Of a stretch of DNA of 64,000 nt, positions 16,485 to 54,842 are shown one piece after another (position 1 is the stretch's first letter; every line of letters begins with the position of its first letter). Location of the stretch: NCBI GenBank assembly GCA_002773855.1, contig PEZY01000005.1, positions 122,532 through 186,531 on the forward strand, in the 5' to 3' direction. The DNA is from Candidatus Buchananbacteria bacterium CG10_big_fil_rev_8_21_14_0_10_33_19. Lineage in GTDB: Bacteria; Patescibacteriota; Patescibacteriia; 2-01-FULL-39-33. The notes beneath the pieces are model-generated. The model ran no database searches. It worked only from the letters and a program-made list of their open reading frames with translations, and had not been told where the DNA came from. A program made the position numbers and the translations under genes.

Positions 16485-16514
16485 AAATTAATAATAAATA
16501 TTATTAAGATAAAA

Positions 16515-17012
16515 TTAAATCCTCAACCAGCGACGTAATCTTTCAGATATAGGTTCTACTTCTCTATCCAAGTCTTCTGCTAAAAACTGTAATAAAAATT
16601 CTCTTATTTTAACAGCATCTAGACCTTCTAAGTCTATTACTAGCCTACCTCTGAGAGGATTTTTAAAATCTATATATAAATTTTTAATGCCATAATCACG
16701 ATAAATAATAAAAAAATTATCAATACTTTTATAAAAAAAGAAATTCTTACCATGTTTAATGCCATCTGGAGTTATAATACAATCAATTACTTCAGATTCC
16801 TTAAATTCATACATTATAACTATTAAATAAAACAAGACTAGGAATACAGCAAATAAATAATTAACTGTATAAATAGCCCAGCCCACCATAGCAACTAAAA
16901 TCAAAAAAGAAATTAAATACCAATAAGTATTTTTTTTATACTTAATATAATCATGACACTTCCAAGAAAAAATCACTTCACTTAGTTGTTTATTGTCTTG
17001 TATATTTTGCAT
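16515..17012 (-). CDS. Hypothetical membrane protein. Start placed at MQNIQDNK because the longer ORF-track start (17144) would overlap tRNA-Ser.
   Basis: Two TM helices. The upstream extension runs into the tRNA gene at 17069-17158. Confidence 0.45.
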   Translation of the reverse strand: MQNIQDNKQLSEVIFSWKCHDYIKYKKNTYWYLISFLILVAMVGWAIYTVNYLFAVFLVLFYLIVIMYEFKESEVIDCIITPDGIKHGKNFFFYKSIDNFFIIYRDYGIKNLYIDFKNPLRGRLVIDLEGLDAVKIREFLLQFLAEDLDREVEPISERLRRWLRI

Positions 17013-17068
17013 GGGTATAATTTTTAGTAAAAAATATTCATAATATTTTTTAAATAAAGCATTAACTG

Positions 17069-17158
17069 CAGAGAGGAAGGGATTCGAACCCTCGATACGC
17101 TTTAAAAACGTATAACGGATTAGCAATCCGTCGCTTTCAACCACTCAGCCACCTCTCT
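17069..17158 (-). tRNA. tRNA-Ser (anticodon GCT), 90 nt with long variable arm
   Basis: Acceptor AGAGAGG/CCTCTCT, anticodon stem ACGGA/TCCGT with loop TTGCTAA, long variable arm, T-loop TTCGAAT. Confidence 0.8.
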
Positions 17159-17167
17159 ATATTGTCA

Positions 17168-17359: not shown

Positions 17360-17373
17360 CACTTCGTTCACTG

Positions 17374-17460
17374 CGGAGAGGGTGGGATTCGAACCCACGG
17401 TCCCCGTGAAGGGACTTCAGTTTTCAAGACTGACGCATTCGACCACTCTGCCACCTCTCC
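17374..17460 (-). tRNA. tRNA-Ser (anticodon TGA), 87 nt with long variable arm
   Basis: Acceptor GGAGAGG/CCTCTCC, anticodon stem TCAGT/ACTGA with loop CTTGAAA, variable arm AGTCCCTTCACGGGGACC, T-loop TTCGAAT. Confidence 0.8.
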
Positions 17461-29100: not shown

Positions 29101-32100
29101 TCTGCTAATTGTTTGCGGTAACTAGCGTCGGCATCAAAAGACAAATAATCAGCGTTTCTTACTTTAACATTATCTGAAGATGGATTAATAGACCCGCGAT
29201 CATTAAACAAAACACAGCCGGAATTATAATCAACTAAACCATTACAACTAGTATAATCCACTTTATTAGACAAGGCATAATATACACCAGCTTGAACCAA
29301 ACTCAATTTAGCATCAACAACGTCTTTGGTTGGTAAATTAACATTAACACTACATGGCAAGCCAGAATTATCCACAATATAAAATCGACCAGTGGCTGAT
29401 TTTGGTGATGCTACTACACTAGCGCCACCAACATTCAAACTTAAATCCGGTGAAACAATAATACCATTACAACTAGGATCAATAGTAATATAAGATTTAT
29501 TAGTCAAAGATTCATCAACAGCTAGTGAATATAGAGTATGGGCTGACAAACTGATTGTTTGGTACCAATTAGTGCCACCATCATTCCAATGATCTGGCAC
29601 AGTATCTTCATCTACATCCTGTGATGTATCGGCATTCAAAATTTCATTTTTATAAACCTCGGTTGATGGATCTATGTATTCGGTACAACTATTTTGATCA
29701 GTTGGACAAGACCCTACCCAATTTTGATAAGTAATAGCTGGGCCTGGGTTTTCATTTGGCCATTCATTTTGACTAGGCAAACCATAACTATTAAACCAAC
29801 CCACTGGTTGTAACTTTTGATCAGAAGAGCCGGTGCCAATGGTTTGTAAATAAGTTACATCACAAGGCTGATTAGTACCCTTCTTATACCACTTAGCCTG
29901 AATCTGACCAGCGTCTGTCCGGTATTCACATAATTTATCTCGTGGATTTTTAAAATAAGAGACGCTTCTACTGCCTACAAATTCTTCACACCACAAAGCA
30001 TTAGCCTGACATAAATCAGTAGCATATCTGTCTGGTTGATTTTTTAGATAAACAGTATTATAGCCAATCACTTCATCCTGATTATTAATAGTTGGTAATC
30101 CTAAAGCCGAACAACCCTTACTATCTGAACCACAAGCGAATTTAGGGTCATTCACCATATAAACATAATTATCATTTGGTACTGTAACTTCTGATTTATC
30201 TCCATCATTAAAAGTGTCGCCAAAATAAGAATTAGAGTTATAAGTATCAATCAATTGTTCGCAACCCACAGCATCAGATCGACACAAATTTTCAAAAGAT
30301 TTCAAAAACCAATTTTGACCACTGCGGTCTCGATATTCCTGACAACCAATCATCTTGCCGGGATTACTTCTGATTGGGTTGAGAGCATCGCCAGTACCAT
30401 ATGGATCGTTAAGATTGTTATCACAAGTAAACGGTGTAAACCAAGAATTTTCAATAGCGTAAACACTTTGAGGCAATTCTTTTAAAAGAATATTATCTAT
30501 GTACACGGTTTTACCGCTAGGTATATTAATTTCAATATTTTGTTCAAAGTTACCAGTATTATTACCCCAATCAATAGTGACTGGGCCTAGTTCATAGCGA
30601 TTCCAATTAATAGTTAACGGTACTGGGATATCAGCTGTTGTGATAACGTCTGGATGTCCAATCATAAATGAACTTTCAGCTGGTGCTTCAGAAAATCTAA
30701 CCGAGCTTAAACTGATATTCTCGTCAGCCTTAGCCCAAAAACTAATCGAATAATTCTTACCTCTTTGAACTAGAACAGTTTTAGTAAATTGTTTTGAGTC
30801 ATTTATTGCATTACTAATAGAATTACCACCCGGATGAGTAGCTTCGCCCACCACAGTACCGCCCTGCCAACTAGAAATACCAGATTCAAAATCAGATAAA
30901 AATATATTTTTAAAACTATTACCTTGATTACCAGTGTATTCTCGACAACCTTTTAAGTTAGCCGAACAAGTGCCACCTTGATTGGGAATCGCCATATAAA
31001 TACACTCATTAAACGAATTCCAATAACCTTGGTTATTTCGACAATCTTGGGCTGCTTCACTGTCGTCATTTTGAGTTTGAGTTCGACGATATGGATGGCA
31101 ACTATTATCAACATAAATCACCCGAGACAATAAACGATAATGAATTGTGCCATCAATGTCATAAAATTCTCGACAATCCGGATTAGAATTTAAATCGGAG
31201 GCCAGACAAGCAGCATAATTTACGTCAGGATCACTACTTGGTGCTGGATCACTACAAACATTTTCACCAGCTAAATTATTTGGATAACTAATATTAGTAC
31301 ACGGAGCACTTGAATTATTGGATTCTTTAAGTTCAAAAACCCTAAGCTGATAACCAGTCGTATCACTACCCTCCCAAGTATAATAAGTAGCTTCATCGTC
31401 ATAAGCATCTGGTTTTTGACAAGTTCGTAGCTGAGTATAATATTCTAAAGCCTCACCACCTCTATCAATTTCATCTAAATTAGTAAATTCATCACAACCA
31501 ACAGCCGCGGCTGAACAAGCTTGAATGGGATCATTATTTATAAACTGTTTATATTTTGACGAAACAAAACTAGTTGGCTCTTGTTTATATACTTGATAGC
31601 CCACACATTCAGCTGGACAAACATCGGCCGAGGTAATAGTGCCTGGCACCGCTGGGTCTCCATTAGTTGGCGTATACAGTTCGCAATTCATTTCATCTTT
31701 AATACAAACACTAGAATAGCTAGAGCAAGCCGGATTACGATTTATAATAACTTGTTGCAAGCTAGTTAAACCAGTTGGCCATTGAATACCAGGGGTTACT
31801 AAATCAGAATCATAACAATTATAATAAGCTGGCGCTTTCTTCAGATAAGCTAATTGATAATCTGGCCGCTGACTAGGATCATAAGAAGTGTAAGCCGAAG
31901 GCAAAACCACTTCTGGCAAAACTTCTTCTAATTTAACGGCGTCAAAATAAACTTCTTTCTTACCTGTACCACCACCTTGTTCGATAGTTAATTTTGGTAT
32001 CACTATCTCGTCAGCTTTATTCCACACAAAACTAGTACTAATTGTAGTCCATTTATACAAATCTGCTTCTTTAAAATATTCTGGAGTAGTATTTATCGTC

Positions 32101-35100
32101 TGACCTCTTAGTCTAATGTAATAACGACCAATTTCTTGGGTATACACTCTAGCCGATAAAACATATTTTTGACCATTAATTAATGTTAGCGGTGATAAAG
32201 AGTTAGAGTTGGCTCCAATATAGGCACAAAAATTATTAGGCGCAGTAAAATCAGCTCGTAAACCAATAGCCTTGGAGCCATCAATACCGGAATTAACCGC
32301 GAATATTTCACAAGAAGTATGATTACCACCTTCAGCTGACCAATGACTTAAATCACCAAAATAATTTTCGAAACTACCATCATTAATTAAGTTACTACCC
32401 AAACCAGCTTTAACTCTAATAAACTGACTGCAACCACCAGCACTAGCATCACAAGTTTGAACATCACGATCAAAATATATTTCTGAATTTGCCTGATCTT
32501 TAGAGCCTAAATTAAGAGCGACATCACCAGTAGAACACGACTCAGGAGCCTCTCTTAAATCAAAATCGTCAAAGAAAACCGTGCCCACTGTCCCCGTGTT
32601 AGTAATTATTCTAATTTCTATCTTATCACCGGCTTGAATATTTTGAGTATTAAATTCCAGATCATATTTCTGCCAATTTTCATTAGGATTACCTATCGAT
32701 TTGTTACCCAATTCCAAAGTCGAAGATAACACTTTAATATCAAAACTACCTACACTAACAGAGCCCCTTAGATAGAAAGATAATTGATATTTTTTATTAG
32801 CTTCAACCCCCGAATCAAACTCTAAAGTAGTTTGTAGTGGATTAGGATTATTAAAACTCAAAGATTCCAAGGAATAGGAGCCAGTTCTCTTGCTAGTATT
32901 AGATCTAAACTGTCTATTATTGTCGTTCTGGTAACTCTCTACCCAAAAACGAGCATCGTAACTGGCACCACCAGTTAATTCAAAGCCACTATTAAATGGA
33001 GTTAAGATATTAACCGAACCCAAACATTTATCTAGCGAACATTCCACTCCACCATCAGGAATAGTGCAAGACTCACTAGAAAAATCACAACCATTAGCCA
33101 AAGTACAAACTTGCGCCATCACCACACCTTTATTTATTGAAGTAGCTGTTTGATCCCATTGATCAACTACTAAACCAGACACCACACAACCACTAGGATT
33201 GGTACAAGTTTTTAAAATTTGTTCACTATCAGTATTCAACCAAGTGCCATCAACAGTATTATAGAAAGTACTATACCACCGACAACCAGCCGACTGAGCA
33301 TCACAATCTCGATAATCTAAAGTATTAGATAAATAAGATCCGGTACTGCCATTTTGTGATTGAAAAGTTTGGCAAGTATTAAAACGAGGTTCACATTTTG
33401 GCGCATTTAAATTCCAAACCTTTCGCTCTTCAGTACAATAACCATAGGCCGTACAATTACCATTTTCATCCTCGCTAACACATTGTTGCTCATCAGCACA
33501 ATATTGTGTCCTCTTAACAGATCCATCTTGAGAGCTGGCCCGATCATTATGAGCGCCGTAACCTTCACGACGACAAAATAATTCTGGTGCTTTTAACACC
33601 CATTGAGGATCAATTAAATTCTCAAAGACTGAACCGTCATTATTAAAAGATTTAACCAAATCACCCAAGGTGTAAGATTTATGCTCATCATGAGCATTGC
33701 TAATGTACCGAGCGGCAATTTCCCAACCCACTGGCACAATTCTATATTTTCTTAAAATAACAATGTTTCTCAAAGAAAAAGATTCTTGAGGATTAACAGT
33801 TGATAGTGCTGGCACAAATTGTCTGTTTAATATTGATTCTGGCAAATCTTTAATTAAAGTCTTCTCTCTAATTAATTTAGACAAAATAGGATCAATCACA
33901 CAATCAGTTGGGCCGGGATTAATTTTGTTGGCCTCAGTACAAGCTGTTAATTTATTTAAAATATTATAAGGACCACCAACAGTTATTTCACTTTCAATTA
34001 AATTTAAAAACCTGGCTTCAGCCCCAATTGAACCTTCAACATATGGTGAGGATTCTGGATTAAGTAAAGACGCAAATCTAGATAAATCTGGCAGATTAAA
34101 ATTATTACCGTTACTATTACCACTAGTAAAGTAACCATCTTTTAAATTTTGCAACAATTGACCAACCAAACTATTTAAAAATGTTTCCACAAAATCCCAA
34201 ACTGTACCAGTAAAAACTGTGTCCTGCTTACCAGCCCGAGACAATGCTTCACGTTGTTGATCTCTAATCATTGTACCTGGTGTCAAAATCCAGCCAGTTA
34301 AACTCTTTAGATCCTTATAACCATTATTAATAGAAGCCTCCAAAGCTGAAACGCCAGTTTCCTTTTTAACCTTATCCATCAAAGACGAGCTAGTCTTTAA
34401 ATAAATACCAATATCGTTTTCACTGGCTTTTAAATAATTACTATACTCCACCGAAAAACTAGCATCGTTAATCGCTGATCGCCAATTATTGACCATGCCC
34501 GTAAAATTACAACTTGGCTTAGCCGGTTGATAACCCCGCAAACTAGTTTTAATCATTAATTCCACGTTAAAATTTGGTCGACATAAATTAACCCCAAATT
34601 CCTTATCAATTTCATCAATAAAAGTTCCCGCCGCATTGTCAGCGGTATTCTTTAGATAAGCACCAATACCTTCGGTGATAAACAATGGCTTTTGCCCCTT
34701 ACCGCCAGAAGCAATCCAAGATGCAGTATCGTAAGCTAATTGCTTGGAAAACACACTCAACATTGATTTCCAGGCTCCAGCCAAAGTGTCTTTCCAAGTT
34801 TGCTTTTCTATGTCTCTTAAATCATCAGCGGCTATTTGTATTGAGCCAGTTTTTGTTATTAATATATTTTGACAATTGTAAAGAGTAATTGTGCTTTGTA
34901 TCTGTGCCACTATAGCTGGCGCACACGTACCAGTGCCATTGACAAACTCACAGGAGTTACTAGCTAATGCTGCTGTAGCAGCATTAGTACAAGCCTCAGC
35001 CGCAGATATCGCCGCCCCAGAGCCAGCACTAGCTTCAGCTGCAGCGTTAAGCAACAAGGCTGTAGCAGCAGGCCCAGTAGCGTTACTATAATTAATATGA

Positions 35101-35159
35101 CCAAAAAATAAAAATATTGGTACTATTAGAAATAAAATTTTAAATCTAAATTCTTTCAT
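26148..35159 (-). CDS. Giant secreted protein (3003 aa): signal peptide, Cys-rich modules and several CBM4/9-like galactose-binding-like domains (ending ...VFFDDFDLRE, ...VYFDAVKLEE, ...VYIDNILLKE)
   Basis: Uninterrupted 9-kb ORF. Hydrophobic N-terminus followed by an A-rich segment. Repeated ~150-aa units ending in the hydrophobic-F/Y-D-D/N-hydrophobic-x-L-x-E signature typical of CBM_4_9-type beta-sandwiches. Very high Cys/Asn/Ser/Thr/Gly content. Confidence 0.65.
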   Translation of the reverse strand: MKEFRFKILFLIVPIFLFFGHINYSNATGPAATALLLNAAAEASAGSGAAISAAEACTNAATAALASNSCEFVNGTGTCAPAIVAQIQSTITLYNCQNILITKTGSIQIAADDLRDIEKQTWKDTLAGAWKSMLSVFSKQLAYDTASWIASGGKGQKPLFITEGIGAYLKNTADNAAGTFIDEIDKEFGVNLCRPNFNVELMIKTSLRGYQPAKPSCNFTGMVNNWRSAINDASFSVEYSNYLKASENDIGIYLKTSSSLMDKVKKETGVSALEASINNGYKDLKSLTGWILTPGTMIRDQQREALSRAGKQDTVFTGTVWDFVETFLNSLVGQLLQNLKDGYFTSGNSNGNNFNLPDLSRFASLLNPESSPYVEGSIGAEARFLNLIESEITVGGPYNILNKLTACTEANKINPGPTDCVIDPILSKLIREKTLIKDLPESILNRQFVPALSTVNPQESFSLRNIVILRKYRIVPVGWEIAARYISNAHDEHKSYTLGDLVKSFNNDGSVFENLIDPQWVLKAPELFCRREGYGAHNDRASSQDGSVKRTQYCADEQQCVSEDENGNCTAYGYCTEERKVWNLNAPKCEPRFNTCQTFQSQNGSTGSYLSNTLDYRDCDAQSAGCRWYSTFYNTVDGTWLNTDSEQILKTCTNPSGCVVSGLVVDQWDQTATSINKGVVMAQVCTLANGCDFSSESCTIPDGGVECSLDKCLGSVNILTPFNSGFELTGGASYDARFWVESYQNDNNRQFRSNTSKRTGSYSLESLSFNNPNPLQTTLEFDSGVEANKKYQLSFYLRGSVSVGSFDIKVLSSTLELGNKSIGNPNENWQKYDLEFNTQNIQAGDKIEIRIITNTGTVGTVFFDDFDLREAPESCSTGDVALNLGSKDQANSEIYFDRDVQTCDASAGGCSQFIRVKAGLGSNLINDGSFENYFGDLSHWSAEGGNHTSCEIFAVNSGIDGSKAIGLRADFTAPNNFCAYIGANSNSLSPLTLINGQKYVLSARVYTQEIGRYYIRLRGQTINTTPEYFKEADLYKWTTISTSFVWNKADEIVIPKLTIEQGGGTGKKEVYFDAVKLEEVLPEVVLPSAYTSYDPSQRPDYQLAYLKKAPAYYNCYDSDLVTPGIQWPTGLTSLQQVIINRNPACSSYSSVCIKDEMNCELYTPTNGDPAVPGTITSADVCPAECVGYQVYKQEPTSFVSSKYKQFINNDPIQACSAAAVGCDEFTNLDEIDRGGEALEYYTQLRTCQKPDAYDDEATYYTWEGSDTTGYQLRVFELKESNNSSAPCTNISYPNNLAGENVCSDPAPSSDPDVNYAACLASDLNSNPDCREFYDIDGTIHYRLLSRVIYVDNSCHPYRRTQTQNDDSEAAQDCRNNQGYWNSFNECIYMAIPNQGGTCSANLKGCREYTGNQGNSFKNIFLSDFESGISSWQGGTVVGEATHPGGNSISNAINDSKQFTKTVLVQRGKNYSISFWAKADENISLSSVRFSEAPAESSFMIGHPDVITTADIPVPLTINWNRYELGPVTIDWGNNTGNFEQNIEINIPSGKTVYIDNILLKELPQSVYAIENSWFTPFTCDNNLNDPYGTGDALNPIRSNPGKMIGCQEYRDRSGQNWFLKSFENLCRSDAVGCEQLIDTYNSNSYFGDTFNDGDKSEVTVPNDNYVYMVNDPKFACGSDSKGCSALGLPTINNQDEVIGYNTVYLKNQPDRYATDLCQANALWCEEFVGSRSVSYFKNPRDKLCEYRTDAGQIQAKWYKKGTNQPCDVTYLQTIGTGSSDQKLQPVGWFNSYGLPSQNEWPNENPGPAITYQNWVGSCPTDQNSCTEYIDPSTEVYKNEILNADTSQDVDEDTVPDHWNDGGTNWYQTISLSAHTLYSLAVDESLTNKSYITIDPSCNGIIVSPDLSLNVGGASVVASPKSATGRFYIVDNSGLPCSVNVNLPTKDVVDAKLSLVQAGVYYALSNKVDYTSCNGLVDYNSGCVLFNDRGSINPSSDNVKVRNADYLSFDADASYRKQLADNDQKPIPPEFVTAPDTGDSNVILKVQPDRACYNWLYCTTYEKDDPDNVDPIYGNNDRCLNLGLCASVDENGVCTNFILKSNLVTNEEYTLKDVNKTGYTSVGYKFLDNQKVTGYYPYYEMFQHGDSADVTNGSFESVVGSSAEPIGWSPVSPGLDTATYKSETSGWQDYEFVVAKDVIGSPDGSRYLIVNSFYEALSEEIDVFSDSTYILSGWINSAGLNYSDKSKIIKSQIQYRQHNKNGGWGNWEIKSELSLDSGLPWTKKIYEFTSLPNTDKIQIKLKNYINLSNLSNPASACANANNKSSCNVCDDNNKLTPCELGGVALFDDISLKPVLEVSDSTVPTEKYVSRTCRIYPAEDSLSCRYLEGNNLFYGNYGYCLLVDPANSKQCLQWWPVDQLEGEVLNEVGGYNDRVPLDYCVDKKSFNVSFSEFGYALTLSSDAKEVVAGFVDTNTGTQMNFSSFKIKDDFRPLFRYPYVKEIKTRVSGIGYTKDNTIYAMIPVNLTFKYDTTKKEWGSWGAIPVCGKLIDAGDFGVAVCFAVELNWDDATKNYGEVIAGLTATYNSKFSNGTLAFGPLMGLKIIDDSQSDSITGSGVSDPIPDLPGDILGAAWFVRSTAEADVIGITMNVSGNFDVGYCDNLVRVVNTSGENKAYANRVAKGSGYINIDRNAKPDAPLSEWIDGVDLIDGSYYYYDPFDYNKFLDAATQNKEYQSSDYQPFGALVSPPGSSNPSNWSSREGIYNTPLLYEPPRLGGFQAPYQARMGELHTQKGLEQLFAQSYGEWWWRWNVCGDTAAQTPTSPCQTPDTERGGSYIEREDLTTSYLTVPLNICNEATRDASSNQPCHINPLVKEIKINNVNSTEPVTPVINRGVGLAKLAFSTQIDPDQLPITAYTIKWGDGEHSKVSGVSLRNRTNIENPFLLYHLFDFWKVKSVTPTTCNAGATNIPCCTKDSCKIKVDIKVYDNWNYYNTSEDSIRLDVNKN

Positions 35160-35164
35160 ATAAA

Positions 35165-36052
35165 TTAATTGCCGGGGGAGTTTAATTTAGTTAAAAACAT
35201 ACTTCTTAATTGCTCATCACTCACTTGTGCCAATGTATCAGCTGGCGCCCCTTGGTCGATCATTAATTGTCTAATCTGAGCGCCAGTTAAATTTTGCAGT
35301 TCAGACAAAGACAATGATCCCAAATTACCAGTGCCAACTGCACCAGTACCACTATCAGTAGTTGGATTTTGACCAGCTATCGCCTGCTGATAAGTAGACA
35401 GCAACTGCTCATCGGTAATACTATCTAATTGCGTTTTAGGAAAACCATTTTTTAGTAGTAATTCTCTTAAGACTGTCGGATCAGATTGGGCATTTAAAAG
35501 TGTAGTTTGATCAGCCTGACTTAAATCCTGAGACAAACCAGTCTCAACCCTAAAACAAGTATCACTACCAGGACAATTAGGATCATGGCCACCGTCAATT
35601 TCTTCCTTATCAGAAATACCATCACTGTCACTATCAGCTAAATACGGACTAGTGCTATAAACATTAAGTTCGTCATAATCAGACAAGCCATCACCATCTG
35701 TGTCTTTTTGTTGCTGGGCTAAAACAGTGGAAACTTCGTTAGATATACTATCACCATTGGCAGTCAATGCCATTAAATCGTTTAAAGGCTTTTTAGCAGA
35801 GGTAGAAAATTGAGTAACACCTAAAATAATGGCAAAAAAAGCAGTAATTAAAACAAAAGCCACAGTGACTTTTTCTTTGGTTGATCTGGTATCAGCAGAA
35901 GTATTGTTATTTACATCTAGAAATTCGTATTCATTTTCTGATTGTAAATACTCTGTTGATTGTTCTCTATTAAACTGATTTTCACCTTCCATCAAGTGTG
36001 GATAAACAGTTAAGTACAAATTAATTATAACACAAAAAGCTACTTTGAACAA
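35165..36052 (-). CDS. Membrane-anchored protein with thrombospondin-type-3-like Ca-binding repeats (DTDGDGLSDYDE, DSDSDGISDKEE). The true start may be the internal MEGENQ.
   Basis: One TM helix. Two DxDxDGxxDxxE repeats. First gene of the long minus-strand operon. Confidence 0.45.
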   Translation of the reverse strand: MFKVAFCVIINLYLTVYPHLMEGENQFNREQSTEYLQSENEYEFLDVNNNTSADTRSTKEKVTVAFVLITAFFAIILGVTQFSTSAKKPLNDLMALTANGDSISNEVSTVLAQQQKDTDGDGLSDYDELNVYSTSPYLADSDSDGISDKEEIDGGHDPNCPGSDTCFRVETGLSQDLSQADQTTLLNAQSDPTVLRELLLKNGFPKTQLDSITDEQLLSTYQQAIAGQNPTTDSGTGAVGTGNLGSLSLSELQNLTGAQIRQLMIDQGAPADTLAQVSDEQLRSMFLTKLNSPGN

Positions 36053-39262: not shown

Positions 39263-40300
39263 TTAACTCTTCTTTGTCTTGAAGAAATTATATATATTAT
39301 ACCACAAACTACTATAAACTTCATCCCAAGCGCCGATATAATTAGTTAATTCTCTGGTCTCATCAAAACCAATTTTAAATCTAGTGACTCCTGGCCATTT
39401 TTCAGCATCGACCCCCCAAAAATCATAATATTTACAGCCAGCTTCTTTAGCAGTAATAATAGTTTGCCATTGCAAAAGATATGGCGCCATTTTACTTCTA
39501 TACTCATAATCAGAAGATCCGTACAAATAGACCTGCCAATCACCAATTTTTATAACAATATTAGCTGTAATCACCTTATTTTCAAATTTAGCCACTACTA
39601 ATTCAGCTTTTTTTGATTCACCTAAAACCTCTAACAATTTTTTATAATAATTCTTTGAGTATGATGTTATTTCATTACGATCTGAAGTTTTTTCCATTAA
39701 CCGCCAAAAATCATTAAAATATTTTTTGCCATGATCAATTTGGACGCCATTTTTTTCAGCCACTTTAATATTATAACGAGTCTTGGACTTCATATTTTTT
39801 AAAATATCGCCTTCCGATTTAGTTAAATCTAATATTAAAGTTGATTTGGGCTGAACTTGACCACTAAAAATAAAACCGGAATCTTTTAAAATATTTTTTA
39901 AATCATCATTATCGCGCCAAGCCGGATCCATACGTAAAAAAATAGCTTTTTCTTGTTGAGCAATTTGCTTAATTTCATTAAACAAAAATTCTAACGTCTC
40001 AATTTGCTGATCAGCCATTAATTCATTATTAACTACAATCGGCCCTCGCGGTAGATAAAAATAACTTTTACCAAACTTTAGGGGTTGTTTGATTACCAAA
40101 GCTAGAGCCATGATTTTACTATTATCTTCTAAAACCACCCTAAATATGTGTCGCCCCAAAACCTCCTGAAATATGCCCCACTCCCACGATTGAAGCAACC
40201 CAAAATCAGCGGAGTTATTTATAATAAAATCATCCCACTTAGTCCTATATGAATTGTCACAAATTTTTACTTGCATAGTTGGTTTAATTATAACAGACAT
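39263..40300 (-). CDS. FemAB-family peptidoglycan interpeptide-bridge peptidyltransferase-like protein
   Basis: 345 aa. Tandem GNAT-like halves; C-terminal YLLQWQTIITAKEAGCKYYDFWGV is characteristic of FemX/FemAB aminoacyl-tRNA-dependent transferases. Confidence 0.6.
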   Translation of the reverse strand: MSVIIKPTMQVKICDNSYRTKWDDFIINNSADFGLLQSWEWGIFQEVLGRHIFRVVLEDNSKIMALALVIKQPLKFGKSYFYLPRGPIVVNNELMADQQIETLEFLFNEIKQIAQQEKAIFLRMDPAWRDNDDLKNILKDSGFIFSGQVQPKSTLILDLTKSEGDILKNMKSKTRYNIKVAEKNGVQIDHGKKYFNDFWRLMEKTSDRNEITSYSKNYYKKLLEVLGESKKAELVVAKFENKVITANIVIKIGDWQVYLYGSSDYEYRSKMAPYLLQWQTIITAKEAGCKYYDFWGVDAEKWPGVTRFKIGFDETRELTNYIGAWDEVYSSLWYNIYNFFKTKKS

Positions 40301-40431
40301 AGAGATAAATATAAATGGATTATTTATTTTATAGTTTCACCAATTAATTGACAAAATAGCCTATCTAGCCTATTATTATCAGTAATAATGTACATTTTAA
40401 GACTAAATCTCCAGACCATAAGGAAAAACAC

Positions 40432-41421
40432 ATGACCAATCCAGATTCATCAAAAACTCTAACAATAAAGAAATTCCTGGGCAATGATCCAACTGTTTTT
40501 TTGACAGCTTTCAATGAAATATTTATCGAAGAAAATCCAGATCATATTCCAATGGATAAAAATTTTTGGAATTGGAAATATCATTCAAGTCCTGATGGGT
40601 TTTTTATTATTATAGCTAAAGATGATCAGGAAAAAATTATTGGTATGATGGGTGTAGTAATAAGACCAATAAAATATTATGACCAATATCTTTTTGCTTA
40701 TAATATCGGTGACCTATGTGTTGAGAAAGACTTTCGGCATCAGGGCTTTATCGCTCAATGTCTAAATATGATTCCCAAAAATAAAAATCTAATCTGGGGT
40801 TTTCCTGGAGAAGAATTTTGGGACACTTATCCTAAATTACTGCCCGGTGCCAATAATTTGAGCATAAAAATATTTTATAAACCAACTACTGACAAACAAA
40901 CTATCCAGAAAAATACTGAAGTAGTTGAAGTGACTTTAGCTGAAACAGAGGTTGATAATCTCTGGCACAAAAAGAAAGCAGAAATCACCACTGGGGTTGT
41001 CAGAAATTGGCAATATATCAAATGGATGGTTGTAGACTCACCACTACCTAATAAGCTATTTTTAATAAAGCGAAATAGTGAAACAATTGGTTATTTTGTC
41101 ACTAGACAAGAGGCTGATCTTTGTCTAATTGTTGATATTTTAATTTTGAATGAGTATTTAGATCAAGACACTATGCTGGCTATAGAAAACACCTGTGGTC
41201 AATTAAATAGCAAAGAAATTAGAACATTTATCACTGATATCCAATTACAAAATTGGCTAACAGCCAATGGGTTTAATTTCTTTAAACGAGAAGAAATAGT
41301 CAATAATGCCTTTTTTGCTTTATATGATTCCAATAATAAAATCAAAGATATCTCCAATGTCTATCTGACTTGGCTAGACTCGGATTGGTATTTATATGAG
41401 GAAGCAAAAGCAAAAACTTAA
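40432..41421 (+). CDS. GNAT-fold acetyltransferase-like protein
   Basis: GDLCVEKDFRHQGFIAQCL resembles the GNAT acetyl-CoA binding motif. 329 aa. Confidence 0.4.
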   Translation: MTNPDSSKTLTIKKFLGNDPTVFLTAFNEIFIEENPDHIPMDKNFWNWKYHSSPDGFFIIIAKDDQEKIIGMMGVVIRPIKYYDQYLFAYNIGDLCVEKDFRHQGFIAQCLNMIPKNKNLIWGFPGEEFWDTYPKLLPGANNLSIKIFYKPTTDKQTIQKNTEVVEVTLAETEVDNLWHKKKAEITTGVVRNWQYIKWMVVDSPLPNKLFLIKRNSETIGYFVTRQEADLCLIVDILILNEYLDQDTMLAIENTCGQLNSKEIRTFITDIQLQNWLTANGFNFFKREEIVNNAFFALYDSNNKIKDISNVYLTWLDSDWYLYEEAKAKT

Positions 41422-41485
41422 ACTATCAAACAGTATTTATAAGCCACGACTACAATCGTGGCTTTAATTATATTCAATCAATTTA

Positions 41486-43000
41486 CTAATTATCTAAATC
41501 TTTTAATAAAACATCTTTAATATATCGACGAGTAAATAAATATCTTTTTTGTTTATTGTCAAAATCAAAGCCCACAGGACCAAAATGTTTTTGATATCCA
41601 ACAATAACATCATCTAAATAAAGTTCATTTTTCTCATTTAACAATTGATGTCTCATCATATAACAACTTTTTATCCTCTCCACATTATCCTCATAAGTAT
41701 AATCAATTCTTAAATTATACATATCATGATTTAAAAAATAACCTGTCTCCCGCAGTCTATATTTAGAGATATTTATCTCCAAATCTGAACCAAAAAGTTT
41801 TTTAGCTTTTATTTTAAAAGCGACTGCCTCAAGAAAAAATCCATAGTCAAGAAACTTAGAATAATTCATCATTTTCCGAGTCATAAAAAGCGGAAAAATA
41901 TCTGGAGCATTAGCATACATCGAAGGTCTTAATTTAATATCTATTTTTTTATCAAGAGTTTTTAGTTTACTTAAATTATCAAAAATGTCACTGGCCAATC
42001 GCTTAAACAATGGAAAGTCTAAATCATCACTAATAATTAAATATAGAAAATGCGAATCTAGGTTCAATATCTGACTCAAATAAACAGACTGCAAGCCACT
42101 AACGGCTAAAGATTTAACAAACATATCTACTTCTGGAATATTTTTAACTTTTAAGTTATTATCAATGATTTTAAATTCTACATAATCTCCGCTAACTGCA
42201 CTATCAGCCTCACTTATTTTTTCGATAATTTTAATCAAATAAAAAATGGCTGTGATAGCCAAATCATCATCGGCTACGAATTTTTTTTCTGGTAAGTCAA
42301 AAAAATTATTTAAAAAATCCCTATCTATACCATTAGAAAATAAAAAATCTTTATATTCATTTTTATCTTTGGCTTCATTTTGATTTACAAAGAAAAAAAA
42401 CATTCTCATAATACTAAGTCCATATCTATACATCATTCTGACATCATATTCACCCCTGAACACTCCTAAATAAATAGCCACTAAAAACTCTTCATAACAA
42501 AAACGCAAATAATAACCGTCTAATTCTGTCTCATCATCACCAAAATCAATTCGACAATCCGTGCCATAAATCAAATTCCAATTTTTAATATGCTTACCTC
42601 TTCTTTCGATATAGCGACGCCTAGTTTTCTGAAATAATTTAAAATTATCTTCGAACATATAAGGATAATGATCAACTGCCCCACCTAGGAACGGAAAAAT
42701 AAAATTAAACCATTTTTCCCAGCGCTTAAAATAAAAATCAATAAACTCCAATTCACGTTCAATAGACATACTATTGATAATAATAAGAATATCAATATCA
42801 CTACGACCAACTATAAATTCACTGCTATTTAGATCGGTTATTAAATAAATAGCCTTAACATTTTTCTCTTTCTTAATAAGAAAAATAAAAATAAGTAGTG
42901 ATAATTTATACAAATTCAAACCTATCTGCCTTAGTGGTCCAATTCTACTATACCTATCAAAGATTAAGGCCAATTTTTTTTGTAAAAATTTTATCATCAC
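41486..43000 (-). CDS. Nucleotidyltransferase-domain protein (minimal Pol-beta-type NTase N-terminus plus a large uncharacterised C-terminal region)
   Basis: N-terminal ...NSSEFIVGRSDIDILIII resembles the G[S]...[DE]h[DE]h NTase signature. 504 aa. Very AT-rich coding sequence (~26% GC). Confidence 0.4.
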   Translation of the reverse strand: MMIKFLQKKLALIFDRYSRIGPLRQIGLNLYKLSLLIFIFLIKKEKNVKAIYLITDLNSSEFIVGRSDIDILIIINSMSIERELEFIDFYFKRWEKWFNFIFPFLGGAVDHYPYMFEDNFKLFQKTRRRYIERRGKHIKNWNLIYGTDCRIDFGDDETELDGYYLRFCYEEFLVAIYLGVFRGEYDVRMMYRYGLSIMRMFFFFVNQNEAKDKNEYKDFLFSNGIDRDFLNNFFDLPEKKFVADDDLAITAIFYLIKIIEKISEADSAVSGDYVEFKIIDNNLKVKNIPEVDMFVKSLAVSGLQSVYLSQILNLDSHFLYLIISDDLDFPLFKRLASDIFDNLSKLKTLDKKIDIKLRPSMYANAPDIFPLFMTRKMMNYSKFLDYGFFLEAVAFKIKAKKLFGSDLEINISKYRLRETGYFLNHDMYNLRIDYTYEDNVERIKSCYMMRHQLLNEKNELYLDDVIVGYQKHFGPVGFDFDNKQKRYLFTRRYIKDVLLKDLDN

Positions 43001-43948
43001 TTACTTCATATTATTTTTTTGTCCATAGACGTAATATTCTACTAGATTAATCAAGCCAAATTTACGCAAAATATTATAGACAATATTGGATAATAAATCT
43101 GGTATAAAGTATAAAACTTTTATAAAGTTTAGGCTTGCACTATCCTCTGTCAATTTATAAAAATCTTTACTATTTTTTTTAAAGTATTTATTTATTTCAA
43201 ACGCATATTCATACAACCGAGCATCAAACTGCATTTTAGATTTTATTTGTTGCTTAATTTGTAAATCATTACTATTAAAATAACTCTTTTTAGTTTTATT
43301 CCTATTTACAAAAAATTTATTAATGCCCAATTTTTTATAAATAAATAAAAAATCTTCTGACTCCTCAGCCAAACCAATAAAATAAAATTTATTCAAGATA
43401 TTTTTTATCTTTTCTAAACTAACTATATTTTCTGGATAATCATAATTAGTCCTAAAATCATCAGTCAAAAACCTAGCCACTAAAAATTGGTAAGCCAAAT
43501 CTAAGTTATCACGTGTACAAATTAATTTATCAAGATCATAATTATCATTATCTTTTAACAGTTGTGGCCTGCCTTCAATTTTAAACCACTCATTATTATG
43601 GTCTATTTTATACTTACTAAAATTATAAAACGAAGAAAACAACTGAAATGGTGAACGAAAAAATGTGATATATCGCACTGTCCTATTGGGAAATAATTCA
43701 TGAATACCATAATAAACTTCGTGACCATAAATTATTTTTAATTTATGCCTCTGATTATCTGGCATAGCTAAAATATGTTTATTAACCGCTTCTTTATTTA
43801 CCAATCCAGCATCAGCTGATCTATACAGTAGTAAAAATTCATTTTTCTTAAAATTTTTCTCTATATGATAACGTAAAGTTATGCCTCCTGTTTTAGGAAT
43901 ATGCAAAAAAACATAAATTATATTTTCATTATTTTTATCATAATCCAT
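43001..43948 (-). CDS. Sulfotransferase-family protein (Sulfotransfer_2-like, 5'-PSB motif)
   Basis: VFLHIPKTGGITLRYHI matches the FxHIPKTGGT PAPS-binding P-loop of family-2 sulfotransferases. 315 aa, very AT-rich. Confidence 0.5.
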   Translation of the reverse strand: MDYDKNNENIIYVFLHIPKTGGITLRYHIEKNFKKNEFLLLYRSADAGLVNKEAVNKHILAMPDNQRHKLKIIYGHEVYYGIHELFPNRTVRYITFFRSPFQLFSSFYNFSKYKIDHNNEWFKIEGRPQLLKDNDNYDLDKLICTRDNLDLAYQFLVARFLTDDFRTNYDYPENIVSLEKIKNILNKFYFIGLAEESEDFLFIYKKLGINKFFVNRNKTKKSYFNSNDLQIKQQIKSKMQFDARLYEYAFEINKYFKKNSKDFYKLTEDSASLNFIKVLYFIPDLLSNIVYNILRKFGLINLVEYYVYGQKNNMK

Positions 43949-44045: not shown

Positions 44046-46463
44046 TTAAACCACGAAACTTAATAATCGACCTGGTACAAAGATAGTTTTTTTGATAGTT
44101 TGATTAATTAAATACTTTTTAATATTTTCATCGGCTTCGGCCAAAGCTACGGCTTCAACCTCAGTGGCATCTTTAGCTAATTTTATTTTAGCTCGTACTT
44201 TACCATTAACTTGAACGGCAATCTCCACTATTTCATTTTTAAACTTAGATTCATCGGCCTTAGGCCAAGTCTCTTTTATGACACTGGTTTGATGTCCTAA
44301 TTGTTGCCATAATTCTTCGACCAAATGAGGGGCAAATGGTGAAAGTAAAATTAAGAATTTTTCCATAATTTCCTGACTAACTGATTTTTGATCAATAATT
44401 TTATTACTCAAAATCATTAAGGCGGAAACCGCTGTATTAAATCGCATCGCCTCAATATCTTCAGAAACTTTCTTAATCGTTTTATTAACTAAAACATCTA
44501 AATCAGCATCTACCTTATCTTCTATCTTTCCCAAATCAGCATTGTAAATATTCCACACCCGATCCAAAAATCTTTTCACTCCCACTACACCCTTGGTATC
44601 CCAAGGAATAGCCTGATCAAACGGCCCCATAAACATTTCATAAAGCCTTAGAGTATCAGCTCCATATTCACTAACAACATCATCGGGATTAACCACATTA
44701 CCACGGGACTTCGACATCTTCTCACCACCTTCACCCAAAATCATGCCGTGAGAAGTGCGCTTTTTATAAGGCTCGGAGGTTGGCACTACACCAATATCAA
44801 ATAAAAATTTATGCCAAAACCGAGAATACAATAAATGAAGGGTGGTGTGTTCCATCCCACCATTATACCAATCCACTGGCAACCACTGTTTTAATTTTTG
44901 ATCATCGGCCAAAGCCTCATTATTTTTTGGATCAATGTATCTTAAAAAATACCAAGAACTACCAGCCCATTGTGGCATAGTATCAGTTTCGCGTTTGGCC
45001 TGGCCGCCACAATTAGGACATTTAGTGTTGACCCAGTCAGTTAATTTGGCAAGTGGTGACTGACCATCATCACTTGTTTGAAATTCTTTGACCTCGGGCA
45101 ATTTAAGTGGTAAATCTTTTTCCGCTACTGGCACAAAACCACATTTTTCACATTCTATTATGGGAATTGGCTCACCCCAATACCTTTGACGCGAAAAGAC
45201 CCAGTCACGTAATTTATAATTAATCGCCCCTTTACCAACACCTTTTTCCTCTAACCAACTAATCATTTTAATAATCGCCTCTTGGGGTTTTAAACCATTT
45301 AAAAAATCAGAATTAATCATTTGGCCATTATTAATATCAGCATAAGCCTCTTTGGCAATATCACCACCAGTTATCACTTCAATAATTTCTAAATTAAACT
45401 TTTTAGCAAATTCATAATCGCGTTCGTCATGAGCCGGCACCGCCATAATCGCCCCGGTACCATAAGAAATTAAAACATAATCAGAAATCCAAATCGGAAT
45501 TTCTTGATTATTCACTGGATTAATCGCTTTAACACCTTTTAGCTCGACACCGGTTTTTTCTTTTTGTAATTCTGTTCTTTCTAAGTCCGATTTTTTAGCC
45601 GAATCATTAATATATTTTTCGACTTCAGAAAAATTAGAAATTTCATTTTTTAATTTTTGGATTAATTCATGTTCTGGGGCCAAGACCATATACGTAGCTC
45701 CAAATAAAGTATCGGGTCTAGTAGTATAGACTTTTATTTTTTCATTACTATCTTTAACAGCAAAATCAACTTCGGCGCCTTCACTTTTACCAATCCAATT
45801 TTTTTGTTGGGTTTTAACTCGTTCAATATAATCAAGATCGTCTAAATCTTTTTCTAATCTATCTGCGTATTTAGTAATTTTTAACATCCATTGTTTTTTG
45901 GTTTTTTTCACCACTTCCCCACCACACCGTTCACATTTACCGTTAACTACTTCTTCATTAGCTAAACCAACTTTACAATCAAGACAAAAATTAATCGCCA
46001 TTTCAGTTTTGTAAGCTAAGCCATGTTTAAAAAGTTGCAAAAAAATCCACTGAGTCCATTTATAATACTTAGGATCAGTAGTAGATATTTCTCTACTCCA
46101 ATCAAAAGAAAAACCCAAAGACTTTAATTGTCTTCTGAAATTAGCAATATTTTCTTCGGTCTTAATAGCTGGATGAATACCCGTTTTGATCGCAAAGTTT
46201 TCTGCCGGCAAACCAAAAGCATCAAAACCAATTGGATATAAAACATTATAGCCTTCCATTCTTCTTTTCCGAGCCACAATATCCAAAGCCGTATAACTCC
46301 TCGGATGGCCAACATGCAAACCTTCACCTGATGGATAAGGAAATTCTACCAAGCAATAATATTTTGGCTTTTCACTATTATTGTCAGCTTCAAATAATTT
46401 ATGTTCTGCCCAATATTTTTGCCATTTAGATTCAATTATTTTATAGTCATAAATCTTGTCCAT
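44046..46463 (-). CDS. leuS: Leucyl-tRNA synthetase
   Basis: HVGHPRSY (HIGH) and KMSKS motifs, editing domain, 805 aa. Confidence 0.9.
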
Positions 46464-52959: not shown

Positions 52960-53137
52960 TTTTATAAATAAATTCGAGCATATGAAAATTTGGATTAAAC
53001 GGAAAGTAAAATGAGTTACAAAGTTTTTACTGTTTGAGGTGATAGCCGAGTTTAAAAACTTTGTTAGAATTTTACTTGAAGTGCCAAATTTTCATCGCTC
53101 GGAGCTTTTGGTTACTTTTGGCAATACAAAAGTAACA
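52960..53137 (+). repeat. ~178-bp structured direct repeat, copy 1 (left boundary of the GC-rich islet). Nested inverted repeats ATGAAAATTTGG/CCAAATTTTCAT and ACAAAGTTTTTA/TAAAAACTTTGT, and a 3' hairpin GTTACTTTTGGCAATACAAAAGTAAC.
   Basis: Near-identical (about 5 mismatches) to 54398-54576. Internal palindromic arms seen directly. Confidence 0.85.
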
Positions 53138-53320
53138 GAAAAAGGAAGTAAAAAAGTGACGAAAAGAGATTTTACTTTCAAAAATACTAATAACGTATTG
53201 TGGATAAAATAACCAACTTATTTACTTACCACACTATATTTATAGTAAAATAGACAAATAAAAAATATCAAAAAAATATCCAAAATAAGCCAAAAAATAA
53301 TAAATATCCACCCCTACCAC

Positions 53321-53349
53321 TTGACAAAATTTGATAGGTGTGCTATAGT
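53321..53349 (+). promoter_or_regulatory. Consensus sigma70 promoter (TTGACA-17nt-TATAGT) driving the GC-rich gene, followed by a ~100-nt leader
   Basis: Perfect -35, 17-nt spacer, near-consensus -10. ATG at 53452 preceded by GGAG. Confidence 0.55.
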
Positions 53350-53451
53350 TTAACTATCGCACAACGCGAGACCTATACTTTATTGGTGTGGGTCGTACTT
53401 TTTAGCAAGACCAAGGGAATTACCCCACGGTCAAAATTGGAGATTTCTAAA

Positions 53452-54264
53452 ATGAAAAAGCGTATTGAATCCAGATTTACGACGGAAATGCAGAATGTCC
53501 CGGCCCAGCTCGTCCTCACCGGCGAGTGTGTCAAACCCGGCCTTGAGGCGCTAGACGCCATCGATGGCCTCGACGATTTCACCGCCAGAGTGAGGGTGAA
53601 GGGTGATGGCTCCAAAGCCGTCATTACAGTGCCGGGATTGAATATCGAGCGGCTAGTGGCCGAAGTGGCCGCCAAAATCGAGATCAATCTGTCCGACATC
53701 CCCGAAAAAGATGGCGGGATCTGGCTCAACAAAGCCGTCCCCCAGTGCATCCCGGTCAAAGACCAGGACATCAAGATTGTCGAAGAAGGTGGTTTCACCT
53801 ACTGGGCAGTTCGCATGATCCTGGGCATCGGGTTCAGTAACCGGTTCTCGATGGTCGAAATCCTGTTGCCCACCGAAAGACGGCAGGAGGCCAGGACCTT
53901 CATCTATCGGGTTCAAAAGTTTCTGAACAAGATGGATGGAGTTATGCCCGATAGCAGAGCACAGACCTTCGGCAACCAGAATACGGCCGTGGCTTTCGCC
54001 TTCGGACAGAGCGACCCACAGAACTTGGAAGGCATGGCCAAAGTGGCCAAGACAATGCTCTACAAGTTTGTTGGTGAAGCGACTGTTTGCCTCTACAGCA
54101 AGAGGGACTCAGCGGCCAAAACCGGTCGGCAAATGCACTTCGCCACCTCGGTATCGGTAGAGCAATCGATGGCGACCCTGGCGGACGCCTTCGACCTGGC
54201 CGACTTCTCTTTTGAGGAAGCCATAGCCGAAGACACCGCGGTCACCGAGACCGCCGCCATCTAA
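53452..54264 (+). CDS. Uncharacterised protein, paralogue B (270 aa), encoded in ~57% GC DNA. Start at MKKRIESR; the ORF-track start at 53338 lies within the promoter.
   Basis: Strong compositional anomaly (GCC/CTG/GGC-rich codons) against the ~33% GC background. Homologous to 49829..50566. Own promoter, RBS and terminators. Confidence 0.6.
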   Translation: MKKRIESRFTTEMQNVPAQLVLTGECVKPGLEALDAIDGLDDFTARVRVKGDGSKAVITVPGLNIERLVAEVAAKIEINLSDIPEKDGGIWLNKAVPQCIPVKDQDIKIVEEGGFTYWAVRMILGIGFSNRFSMVEILLPTERRQEARTFIYRVQKFLNKMDGVMPDSRAQTFGNQNTAVAFAFGQSDPQNLEGMAKVAKTMLYKFVGEATVCLYSKRDSAAKTGRQMHFATSVSVEQSMATLADAFDLADFSFEEAIAEDTAVTETAAI

Positions 54265-54285
54265 GGCACACACCCACCCACACCC

Positions 54286-54315
54286 GAGGGCGGATCACAA
54301 CGTTGATCCGCCCTC
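54286..54315 (+). terminator. GC-rich 12-bp hairpin GAGGGCGGATCA-CAACGT-TGATCCGCCCTC immediately after the islet CDS
   Basis: Perfect inverted repeat. No strong T-run, so it may act with the next hairpin. Confidence 0.45.
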
Positions 54316-54339
54316 AAATTATTTATACTTACTTTTACT

Positions 54340-54363
54340 CAGCACTACTGTGCTGTTTTTTTA
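54340..54363 (+). terminator. Rho-independent terminator CAGCAC-TACT-GTGCTGTTTTTTT
   Basis: 6-bp stem plus a 7-T run. Confidence 0.55.
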
Positions 54364-54397
54364 TTTAATATTTTTTAATGTTTGAATTTTTATAATA

Positions 54398-54576
54398 AAT
54401 ATATAAATAAATTCGAGCATATGAAAATTTGGATTAAACGGAAAGTAAAATGAGTTACAAAGTTTTTATTGTTTGAGGCTTTAGCCGAGTTTAAAAACTT
54501 TGTTAGAATTTTACTTGGAGTGCCAAATTTTCATCGCTCGGAGCTTTTGGTTACTTTTGGCGGTACAAAAGTAACA
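54398..54576 (+). repeat. ~178-bp structured direct repeat, copy 2 (right boundary of the GC-rich islet)
   Basis: See copy 1. Followed by additional related hairpin units: GGTACTTTTTCTAAAAAAGTACC at ~54606-54628 and GTTACTTTTTGTTATCAAAAAGTGAC at ~54658-54684. Confidence 0.85.
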
Positions 54577-54842
54577 AAGAAAAATTACTGTCGCGATTTT
54601 TGCGGTACTTTTTCTAAAAAAGTACCAATGTGATTTAGAATATAATCATGGCTCGTAGTTTTTGTGTTACTTTTTGTTATCAAAAAGTGACGAGAAGAAT
54701 AATTATCAAAGAAAATTAGATTGCTTCGTCCCTCGCAATGACGATATAGGTCAAGAGATTGCTTCGTGCCCATGCCTACAACAGGCAGGCTCGCAATGAC
54801 AGAGATATTAAAATCTACAACAGTCAGATTCACAATAACAAA

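Follow-up and report, generated by a model that had tools for sequence, protein, structure and literature searches.

The window analysed in this study is a DNA stretch of 64,000 nucleotides (nt) from Candidatus Buchananbacteria bacterium CG10_big_fil_rev_8_21_14_0_10_33_19 (contig PEZY01000005.1, positions 122,532 to 186,531). It contains two adjacent genes, ST315 and X504, which are situated next to leuS and are the subject of this report. An initial annotation had described them as an AT-rich accessory block, by implication foreign, composed of a sulfotransferase gene and a gene for a protein with a nucleotidyltransferase (NTase) motif, and had considered a role in surface-glycan or cell-wall modification. 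The results presented here point to a divergent carbohydrate-type sulfotransferase and to a member of an unnamed protein family with a predicted NTase fold. We propose with moderate confidence that both proteins act as tailoring enzymes and belong to a variable island for a cell-envelope glycan or the cell wall.

The annotated extents of both open reading frames (ORFs), with 315 and 504 amino acids (aa), and the absence of a spacer between them were correct. The TAA stop codon of ST315 is directly followed by GTG-ATG, and the GTG is the start codon of X504 (spacer of 0 nt). In the NCBI database X504 has 503 aa, because the ATG 3 nt past the GTG is taken as its start there. Proteins identical to the pair are on record as GW933_03035 and GW933_03040, both hypothetical proteins of a Candidatus Falkowbacteria bacterium from the candidate phyla radiation (CPR, Patescibacteria). 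The positions of the two genes, of their motifs and of the neighbouring features are summarized in Table 1.

Table 1. Genes, protein segments and motifs of the locus, with their positions in the window
Feature	Position	Strand	Remarks
ST315	43001..43948	-	315 aa; predicted divergent Sulfotransfer_2-type (HS2ST/HS6ST-like) PAPS-dependent sulfotransferase
ST315, 5'-phosphosulfate-binding (5'-PSB) loop FLHIPKTGGIT, residues 14-24	43877..43909	-	motif and conservation
ST315, G75-H76, candidate catalytic His	43721..43726	-	both invariant (15 homologs)
ST315, putative 3'-phosphate-binding segment R98...S106 (RSPFQLFSS)	43631..43657	-	R98 and S106 invariant (15 homologs)
X504	41486..43000	-	504 aa; unnamed family, predicted ANT/KNTase-like NTase fold
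X504 N-half, residues 1-272, predicted NTase domain and HEPN-like helical bundle	42185..43000	-	
X504, putative metal-binding DxD motif G65-R-S67-D68-I-D70	42791..42808	-	conservation; GRSDIDILII = residues 65-74
X504 C-half, residues 273-504, predicted alpha/beta and helical region	41489..42184	-	without confident PDB match
leuS	44046..46463	-	conserved upstream flank of the island; 76% identity to leuS of related locus L001
GC-rich hairpin	41441..41464	.	9-bp stem, 5 GC pairs; between the 3' ends of the convergent genes X504 and GNAT-like gene
GNAT-fold protein, 329 aa	40432..41421	+	PF00583, 23.7 bits versus cutoff of 20.7
FemX-like tRNA-dependent peptidoglycan-precursor aminoacyl transferase	39263..40300	-	FemAB PF02388, 3.7e-47
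Two MFS_1 transporters in tandem, each with 393 aa	36901..39247	-	PF07690 at 5.5e-22 and 5.6e-15

The sulfotransferase ST315

A direct scan of ST315 with the hidden Markov models (HMMs) of Pfam, NCBIfam, PADLOC and PHROGs yielded nothing significant. Sub-threshold matches to Transthyretin and HIUase turned out to be spurious. The initial assignment as a sulfotransferase had been based on FLHIPKTGGIT as a binding motif for 3'-phosphoadenosine-5'-phosphosulfate (PAPS), and it was upheld not by a direct Pfam match, but by the family profile, the conserved motifs and the predicted fold. Eight of the 15 members of the ST315 family match PF03567 (Sulfotransfer_2) with a best E-value of 5e-14, and the family profile retrieved the heparan sulfate sulfotransferases HS6ST (5t03, 6.3e-11) and HS2ST (4ndz, 2.1e-8).

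The three motifs of ST315 listed in Table 1 have counterparts in these enzymes. In the 5'-PSB loop H16, P18, K19 and G22 are invariant among 15 homologs and T24 is at least 90% conserved, and the loop can be aligned with 'FLHIQKTGGTT' of HS6ST as well as with the loop of HS2ST. The segment from R98 to S106 aligns with 'RDPIERLVS' of HS2ST, and G75-H76 aligns with the 'GH' of its 'YHGH' sequence, the His of which has a catalytic role in that enzyme.

The AlphaFold2 (AF2) model of ST315 has a pLDDT of 81. HS2ST was the top match of the model in a Foldseek search (E-value 2.3e-6, probability 1.0, TM-score 0.52-0.56), and almost all other matches were PAPS-dependent sulfotransferases, with the glycopeptide sulfotransferases Teg12 and Teg14 low in the list. 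No 19-residue hydrophobic window of either ST315 or X504 reached the threshold for a membrane segment. On the basis of alignments and model we consider the assignment of ST315 as a sulfotransferase to be solid. It would be a carbohydrate-type, HS2ST-like Sulfotransfer_2 enzyme, with a membership that is transitive via its family.

Sequence family and motifs of X504

A word-indexed search of 5.8 billion proteins revealed six relatives of X504, and a repetition with an alignment of 28 sequences returned the same six proteins. The family profile found one homolog in 185,579 species-representative genomes and no locus in metagenome contigs. An exhaustive profile search led to 140 representative clusters, 23 of them with an E-value below 1e-30, and most of these proteins have a length of 450-570 aa. 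The alignment of the distant with the close relatives by hhalign covered 446 columns (probability 100%, E-value 5e-49), and therefore the whole architecture of about 500 residues is conserved.

A phmmer search with X504 against the PDB sequences gave no match. Among 67 distant relatives, 28 match PF01909 (NTP_transf_2; best E-value 5.3e-9) and 20 match Polbeta, while only two of the 28 close relatives match PF01909, and these weakly. Judged from these alignments, X504 can be placed in the Pol-beta superfamily (PF01909) by transitive membership. An HMM match to LicD (PF04991) was found neither for X504 nor for the 28 close and 67 distant relatives scanned.

The NTase motif of the initial annotation, GRSDIDILII, contains the putative metal-binding residues. 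Each of the 28 aligned family members has S67, D68 and D70, both Asp residues are also invariant in the 67 distant relatives, and D68-I-D70 is invariant in the alignments of 6, 28 and 67 sequences. The NTase assignment is thus supported indirectly, by the invariant DxD, by the PF01909 matches of distant full-length relatives and by the predicted fold (see below), but neither by a direct HMM match nor by the G[SG] half of the motif.

The relatives are named in their sources only 'hypothetical' or 'nucleotidyltransferase domain-containing', and no NCBIfam name exists even for the distant members. In the searchable literature we found no paper that treats the X504 family, and nothing relevant in the literature on sulfotransferases or FemX in CPR bacteria or Falkowbacteria.

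Some relatives deserve mention in their own right. The cluster P0022 (member P0160), to be viewed together with locus L013, contains a full-length X504 relative with about 33% identity, and one of its members is annotated as originating from a metagenome-assembled genome of Nanoarchaeota (DPANN). The family therefore occurs in CPR bacteria and in at least one DPANN bin, which may be due to inter-domain transfer or to mis-binning. Further members come from other uncultured lineages. In the distant relatives P0063, P0077, P0114, P0129 and P0082 the N-terminal NTase module of about 150 residues is part of proteins of 710-2489 aa that consist mostly of NosD/right-handed beta-helix repeats.

Predicted structure of X504

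The AF2 model of X504 (pLDDT 88.4, pTM 0.89) contains the alpha/beta fold of NTases. All of the nearest structures are antibiotic NTases, with the aminoglycoside nucleotidyltransferase (ANT) ANT(4') at a Foldseek probability of 0.99 and an E-value of 6e-3. The order of the secondary structure elements is similar in both halves of X504, and the half-versus-half alignment pairs invariant residues of the family, namely Y52 with Y307, P103-F104 with F369-P370 and G146 with G404, while SDID has no counterpart in the C-half. From sequence and model it might tentatively be concluded that X504 arose by a tandem duplication that gave a single-chain pseudo-dimer with a degenerate copy as its C-half. ANT(4') is a homodimer that binds its substrate between the two subunits.

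The predicted combination of an NTase domain with a HEPN-like bundle would also fit an anti-phage defence or nucleotide second-messenger module of the CD-NTase or MNT/HEPN type, which had been named initially as a less likely alternative. In favour of such a module, the block combines variability and AT-richness with fast evolution, and two distant relatives match the MntA model weakly. This explanation is nevertheless highly improbable. The PADLOC models of defence systems gave no match and no effector gene is adjacent to the pair. No similarity to CD-NTases was seen, the Foldseek probability for CdnE being 0.03-0.05. The sequence that starts with the invariant R188, 'RMMYRYGL', is devoid of His, and thus the R-x4-6-H motif of HEPN RNases is missing. 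In addition, the X504 family profile found no locus on viral contigs, tblastn with ST315 and X504 found no match in phage records, and the chromosomal position beside leuS is stable.

Variation of the locus in relatives

In relatives of the window genome the general gene order is leuS, the sulfotransferase gene (where present), X504, the GNAT gene on the opposite strand, FemX, two MFS genes and rsmA. In Falkowbacteria-like genomes the island is flanked by two housekeeping genes, leuS and rsmA. X504 is 58-59% identical to its homolog in locus L001, 53% in L002, 52% in L004 and 49% in L003. In L001, L002 and L004 leuS is directly followed by X504, without an intact sulfotransferase gene between or beside them. 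L003 has the sulfotransferase gene and then X504, in the same order as in the window. In L009 the order is reversed; there, the C-terminus of X504 (46% identical) overlaps the sulfotransferase gene by 4 nt, and the sulfotransferase is 64% identical to ST315.

A decayed sulfotransferase C-terminus was found in L004 right after the X504 homolog (L004:3714-3890). It is 51% identical to residues 256-315 of ST315 and contains an in-frame stop codon. This remnant shows a loss of the sulfotransferase gene in progress, and the two genes are arranged the other way round than in the window. The sulfotransferase can be dispensed with, and some lineages are losing it. The open question of the initial annotation whether the pair is present in related genomes can thus be answered in two parts: X504 is found at the same locus in the relatives, and only the sulfotransferase gene is variably present. 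Two regions considered as hidden sulfotransferase genes, L006:5849-6871 and L005:2-496, were tested with a negative result, as was a second 504-aa protein of L013 that was considered as a paralog of X504.

It could be argued that the two genes are mere neighbours, that X504 serves a separate function and that ST315 is an accessory gene that was independently gained or lost beside leuS. The sulfotransferase gene is missing from most X504 loci, leuS abuts X504 in the three loci mentioned above, and the distant sulfotransferase relatives never adjoin X504-like genes. We regard this as unlikely, however, since the adjacency is found in both gene orders, with spacings of 0 nt and 4 nt, although the sulfotransferases are only 41-64% identical. 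Genes that stay adjacent in spite of rearrangement are usually coupled. The preservation of the adjacency in both orders therefore suggests that ST315 and X504 are functionally coupled.

The island does not evolve uniformly. The comparison of the window with L002 revealed identities of 53% for X504 and 39% for the GNAT protein, versus 92% and 83% for the two MFS transporters, 79% for leuS, 78% for rsmA and 75% for FemX. The diverged X504/GNAT sub-block comprises positions 40432-43000 of the window and L002:680-4101. The flanks of L001 are more distant from the window than those of L002, yet its X504 is more similar. These identities suggest that the sub-block may have been subject to allele replacement or diversifying selection. 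By analogy, divergent X504 and GNAT genes amid similar flanks would match the pattern of variable surface-structure or surface-antigen loci. As a side observation, L002:2190-4101 contains two tandem GNAT-like genes beside X504.

Neighbouring genes and genomic context

All neighbours of the initial annotation, i.e., a FemAB gene, a gene for a GCN5-related N-acetyltransferase (GNAT) and two genes for transporters of the major facilitator superfamily (MFS), were confirmed by matches to PF02388, PF00583 and MFS_1. The product of the FemAB gene retrieved the Weissella FemX structure 1ne9 (4.8e-15) and the FmhB/Lipid II:Gly transferase structure 6snr (1e-18), and by these alignments it appears to be a genuine FemX/FmhB-type enzyme. 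The GNAT gene is the most constant neighbour of X504, with homologs beside X504 in L001, L002 (two copies) and L003, and both MFS genes are kept in L001 and L002. The hairpin between the convergent genes is likely a bidirectional terminator.

These neighbours allow for a second view, in which the locus serves the modification and efflux of xenobiotics or antibiotics. The substrate of X504, which would function in the manner of an ANT, would resemble an aminoglycoside or lincosamide; this compound would be acetylated by the GNAT protein, sulfated by ST315 and exported by the two MFS pumps. The nearest X504 structures are indeed antibiotic NTases, two MFS_1 transporters are adjacent, Teg12 and Teg14 occur low in the fold list of ST315, and the GNAT protein has only weak matches in the PDB, to the aminoglycoside acetyltransferases AAC(2') and AAC(3). 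The latter matches, however, are non-significant and generic, and X504 resembles no ANT in sequence, is twice as large and lacks G[SG]. Furthermore, the family contexts are clusters for glycosyltransferases and polysaccharide export, not resistance cassettes, and no association with plasmids or phages was found. We therefore consider this view distinctly unlikely.

The contexts of more remote relatives argue for a role of the pair in cell-envelope glycan or cell-wall modification. X504 relatives lie beside a family 2 glycosyltransferase (GT2) gene in L005, beside two GT4 genes in L006 and beside genes for a GT4, a methyltransferase and a GT2 in L013, and one relative is fused to a GT2 and others to NosD/beta-helix domains. 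A relative from Cloacimonadota is encoded beside a GT2, a GT4, a Wzm/Wzt ABC polysaccharide exporter, radical-SAM/SPASM enzymes and an exosortase. The distant relatives of ST315 are also found in polysaccharide clusters, without an X504-like neighbour: in L011 together with GT4, Wzx, MBOAT and deacetylases, in L012 together with GT8, GT4, GT2 and two further sulfotransferases. It is these contexts that make surface-glycan or cell-wall modification, which had been suggested initially, the best supported interpretation. The three sulfotransferase genes at L012:1339-5412 are of two kinds, two being of the ST315 family and one of the Sulfotransfer_1/3 type.

An envelope role has to be compared with the possibility that the genes form a small-molecule (secondary-metabolite) cluster, in which the FemX-like ligase, the GNAT protein, X504 and ST315 would build and tailor a compound for export by the MFS transporters. 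Between X504 and FemX the L003 island has additional genes for a short-chain dehydrogenase/reductase (SDR), a ketoacyl synthase (KAS) III, a methyltransferase and a B12-radical-SAM enzyme, L004 has an SDR gene after X504, and the two MFS exporters are conserved. Such additional gene types, however, are also common in the tailoring of glycans and lipids, and the window itself lacks KAS, SDR and radical-SAM genes. Moreover, the FemX protein aligns over nearly its full length with bona fide peptidoglycan FemX and FmhB. A small-molecule cluster thus seems improbable.

Base composition

The marked AT-richness relative to leuS was confirmed, as ST315 and X504 have GC contents of 24.6% and 27.5%, respectively, compared with 35.2% for leuS. 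Among the 47 long ORFs of the window ST315 has the lowest value (z = -2.1) and X504 is tied for the second lowest (z = -1.4). At third codon positions the GC content (GC3) is reduced only slightly (z = -0.8 for ST315 and -0.6 for X504), and most of the deficit is carried by codon positions 1 and 2. The residues F, Y, M, I, N and K account for 48% of ST315 and 43% of X504, versus 33% of LeuS.

In all related loci the X504 homologs have GC contents 6-10 points below their own leuS or neighbouring genes. Recent horizontal transfer as a cause of the low GC content was therefore set aside, because the GC3 deviation is small and the dip is common to the orthologs at the same locus. The low GC content is a lasting trait of a fast-evolving gene family and no mark of a recent import. 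The initial characterization as an AT-rich accessory block, with its implied foreign origin, is thus only half correct: X504 is present at the same locus in relatives (about 49-59% identity), and it is the sulfotransferase gene alone that varies in presence.

Other features of the window

Just past rsmA, at positions 26148-36052, the window encodes a protein of 3003 aa with a carbohydrate-binding domain (CBM_4_9) and an adjacent protein of 295 aa with bacterial TSP3 repeats. The former is likely a giant surface protein and the latter its partner. This arrangement is kept in L001 and L002, each of which has an ORF of about 2900-3000 aa.

An unusual element is situated at positions 52963-54582. 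Two copies of a 181-nt direct repeat (52963-53143 and 54402-54582, 95% identical) bracket a segment of about 1.26 kb with a GC content of about 54% in a genome of 34% GC. The enclosed ORF 53338..54264 encodes 308 aa, has a GC3 of 0.68 and gave no Pfam match. Each repeat folds into a long hairpin and a terminator-like stem (minimum free energy of -56 kcal/mol, z = -7.2). No match in Rfam and no plasmid DNA match was found for the element, which might be explained by a small insertion of foreign or mobile DNA or by a chimeric assembly.

Positions 16412-17460 contain a cluster of three genes for tRNAs (Arg-GCG, Ser-GCT and Ser-TGA). The low-GC ORF 16515..17144 overlaps the tRNA-Ser gene at 17068-17158 and may be spurious or mis-started.

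Discussion

The folds, the motifs, the transitive family memberships and the recurrent adjacency described above are the basis of the proposal that ST315 and X504 tailor a cell-envelope glycan or cell-wall component. From them we infer the substrates, the donor nucleotide and a physical or pathway coupling of both enzymes, in the following way. ST315 would act in the cytoplasm and transfer sulfate from PAPS to a sugar hydroxyl. With its two Asp residues and Mg2+, X504 would place a nucleotidyl group on a hydroxyl of a sugar-containing acceptor; alternatively, following the LicD precedent, it might transfer a phospho-alcohol group to such a hydroxyl. The single chain of X504 would mimic the homodimer of ANT(4'), its second half probably being a degenerate copy. 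The acceptor would be a cell-wall-associated glycan or a peptidoglycan-linked precursor, and the adjacent GNAT, FemX and MFS proteins would share in its handling.

Two extensions of the proposal can be envisaged. X504 might represent a new class of single-chain, pseudo-dimeric, ANT-like enzymes without G[SG] that nucleotidylate or phospho-modify cell-surface glycans, and in Falkowbacteria such an enzyme, together with a dedicated sulfotransferase, might lead to an anionic, sulfated wall decoration of an episymbiont. We consider this version less likely than not. As a bolder extension, X504 might synthesize or handle the activated sulfate donor, if the genome lacks a canonical PAPS pathway. This is unlikely, because X504 usually occurs without a sulfotransferase.

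Several observations weigh against the proposed envelope role. The block of the window itself does not contain a glycosyltransferase gene, and the number of family contexts that were compared is small (about nine). The sulfotransferase gene is absent from L001, L002, L005, L006 and L013, and therefore X504 does not need it. ST315 did not match PF03567 at an E-value of up to 1 and is thus under the gathering threshold, and X504 itself had no match in Pfam (E-value of up to 1), NCBIfam, PADLOC or PHROGs. The h-G-[GS] motif expected 9-13 residues upstream of DxD is missing in 26 of 27 members of the X504 clade and is replaced by IY-x-x-T55-D, while it is kept in 21 of 65 distant relatives, e.g., as 'YLRGS'. 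Because the X504 clade lacks this nucleotide-binding motif, the catalytic competence of X504 is not assured. Concerning a third carboxylate, E83 is invariant in ten sequences and D121 is acidic in nine of the ten, so that D121 is a tentative candidate. In hhalign the two halves of X504 show a weak similarity (P = 0.0016, probability 16%).

CPR bacteria attach to host cells by means of their cell envelopes, the biochemistry of which is almost uncharacterised. ST315 and a member of an unnamed NTase family, encoded beside FemX in a fast-evolving island, are concrete and expressible candidates for envelope decoration in these bacteria. The pair thus offers clear experimental targets for CPR envelope chemistry, and as far as the mechanism is concerned, nothing surprising was revealed. 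The X504 family, with about 140 clusters, no full-length Pfam or NCBIfam model and a recurrent glycan-cluster habitat, is a defined target for curation. It might also open a route to new glycan-tailoring chemistry that is related in fold to antibiotic adenylyltransferases.

Among the known systems, ST315 is most similar to the heparan sulfate 2-O- and 6-O-sulfotransferases of PF03567, with which it shares the PKTGG(T) loop, the R...S segment, the GH pair and the overall predicted fold. In contrast to these enzymes, it is bacterial, predicted to be cytoplasmic and below every Pfam threshold; its identity to HS2ST is only 16-17%, and it has an additional helical C-terminal tail (residues ~256-315) of low pLDDT. 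ST315 is therefore a new, divergent member of a known sulfotransferase family.

For X504 the two-domain module of residues ~1-270 is predicted to be alike in ANT(3'')(9)/AadA, AAD(9), ANT(4') (the kanamycin nucleotidyltransferase, KNTase) and LinB. However, ANT and Lnu enzymes have about 250-290 aa, whereas X504 has 504 aa with an extra C-half and has lost G[SG]. Sequence similarity to ANTs was detectable neither by phmmer nor with the family profile against the PDB, and the genomic contexts of X504 are glycan clusters instead of resistance cassettes. MNT/MntA, AF0614 and HI0073 act with HEPN partners, while X504 is one fused, apparently duplicated chain, and it differs from the MNT-HEPN (type VII) toxin-antitoxin systems in that it has neither the HEPN RNase motif nor a toxin-antitoxin gene organisation. 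With LicD/fukutin (PF04991) it shares a functional analogy only, i.e., that of an NTase-superfamily enzyme inside surface-glycan clusters. LicD-family enzymes with an NTase fold act on glycans via CDP conjugates (PMC11666461). Compared with all of these systems, the X504 family is unnamed and uncurated, and it combines an apparently doubled architecture, the loss of G[SG] and a habitat in glycan clusters.

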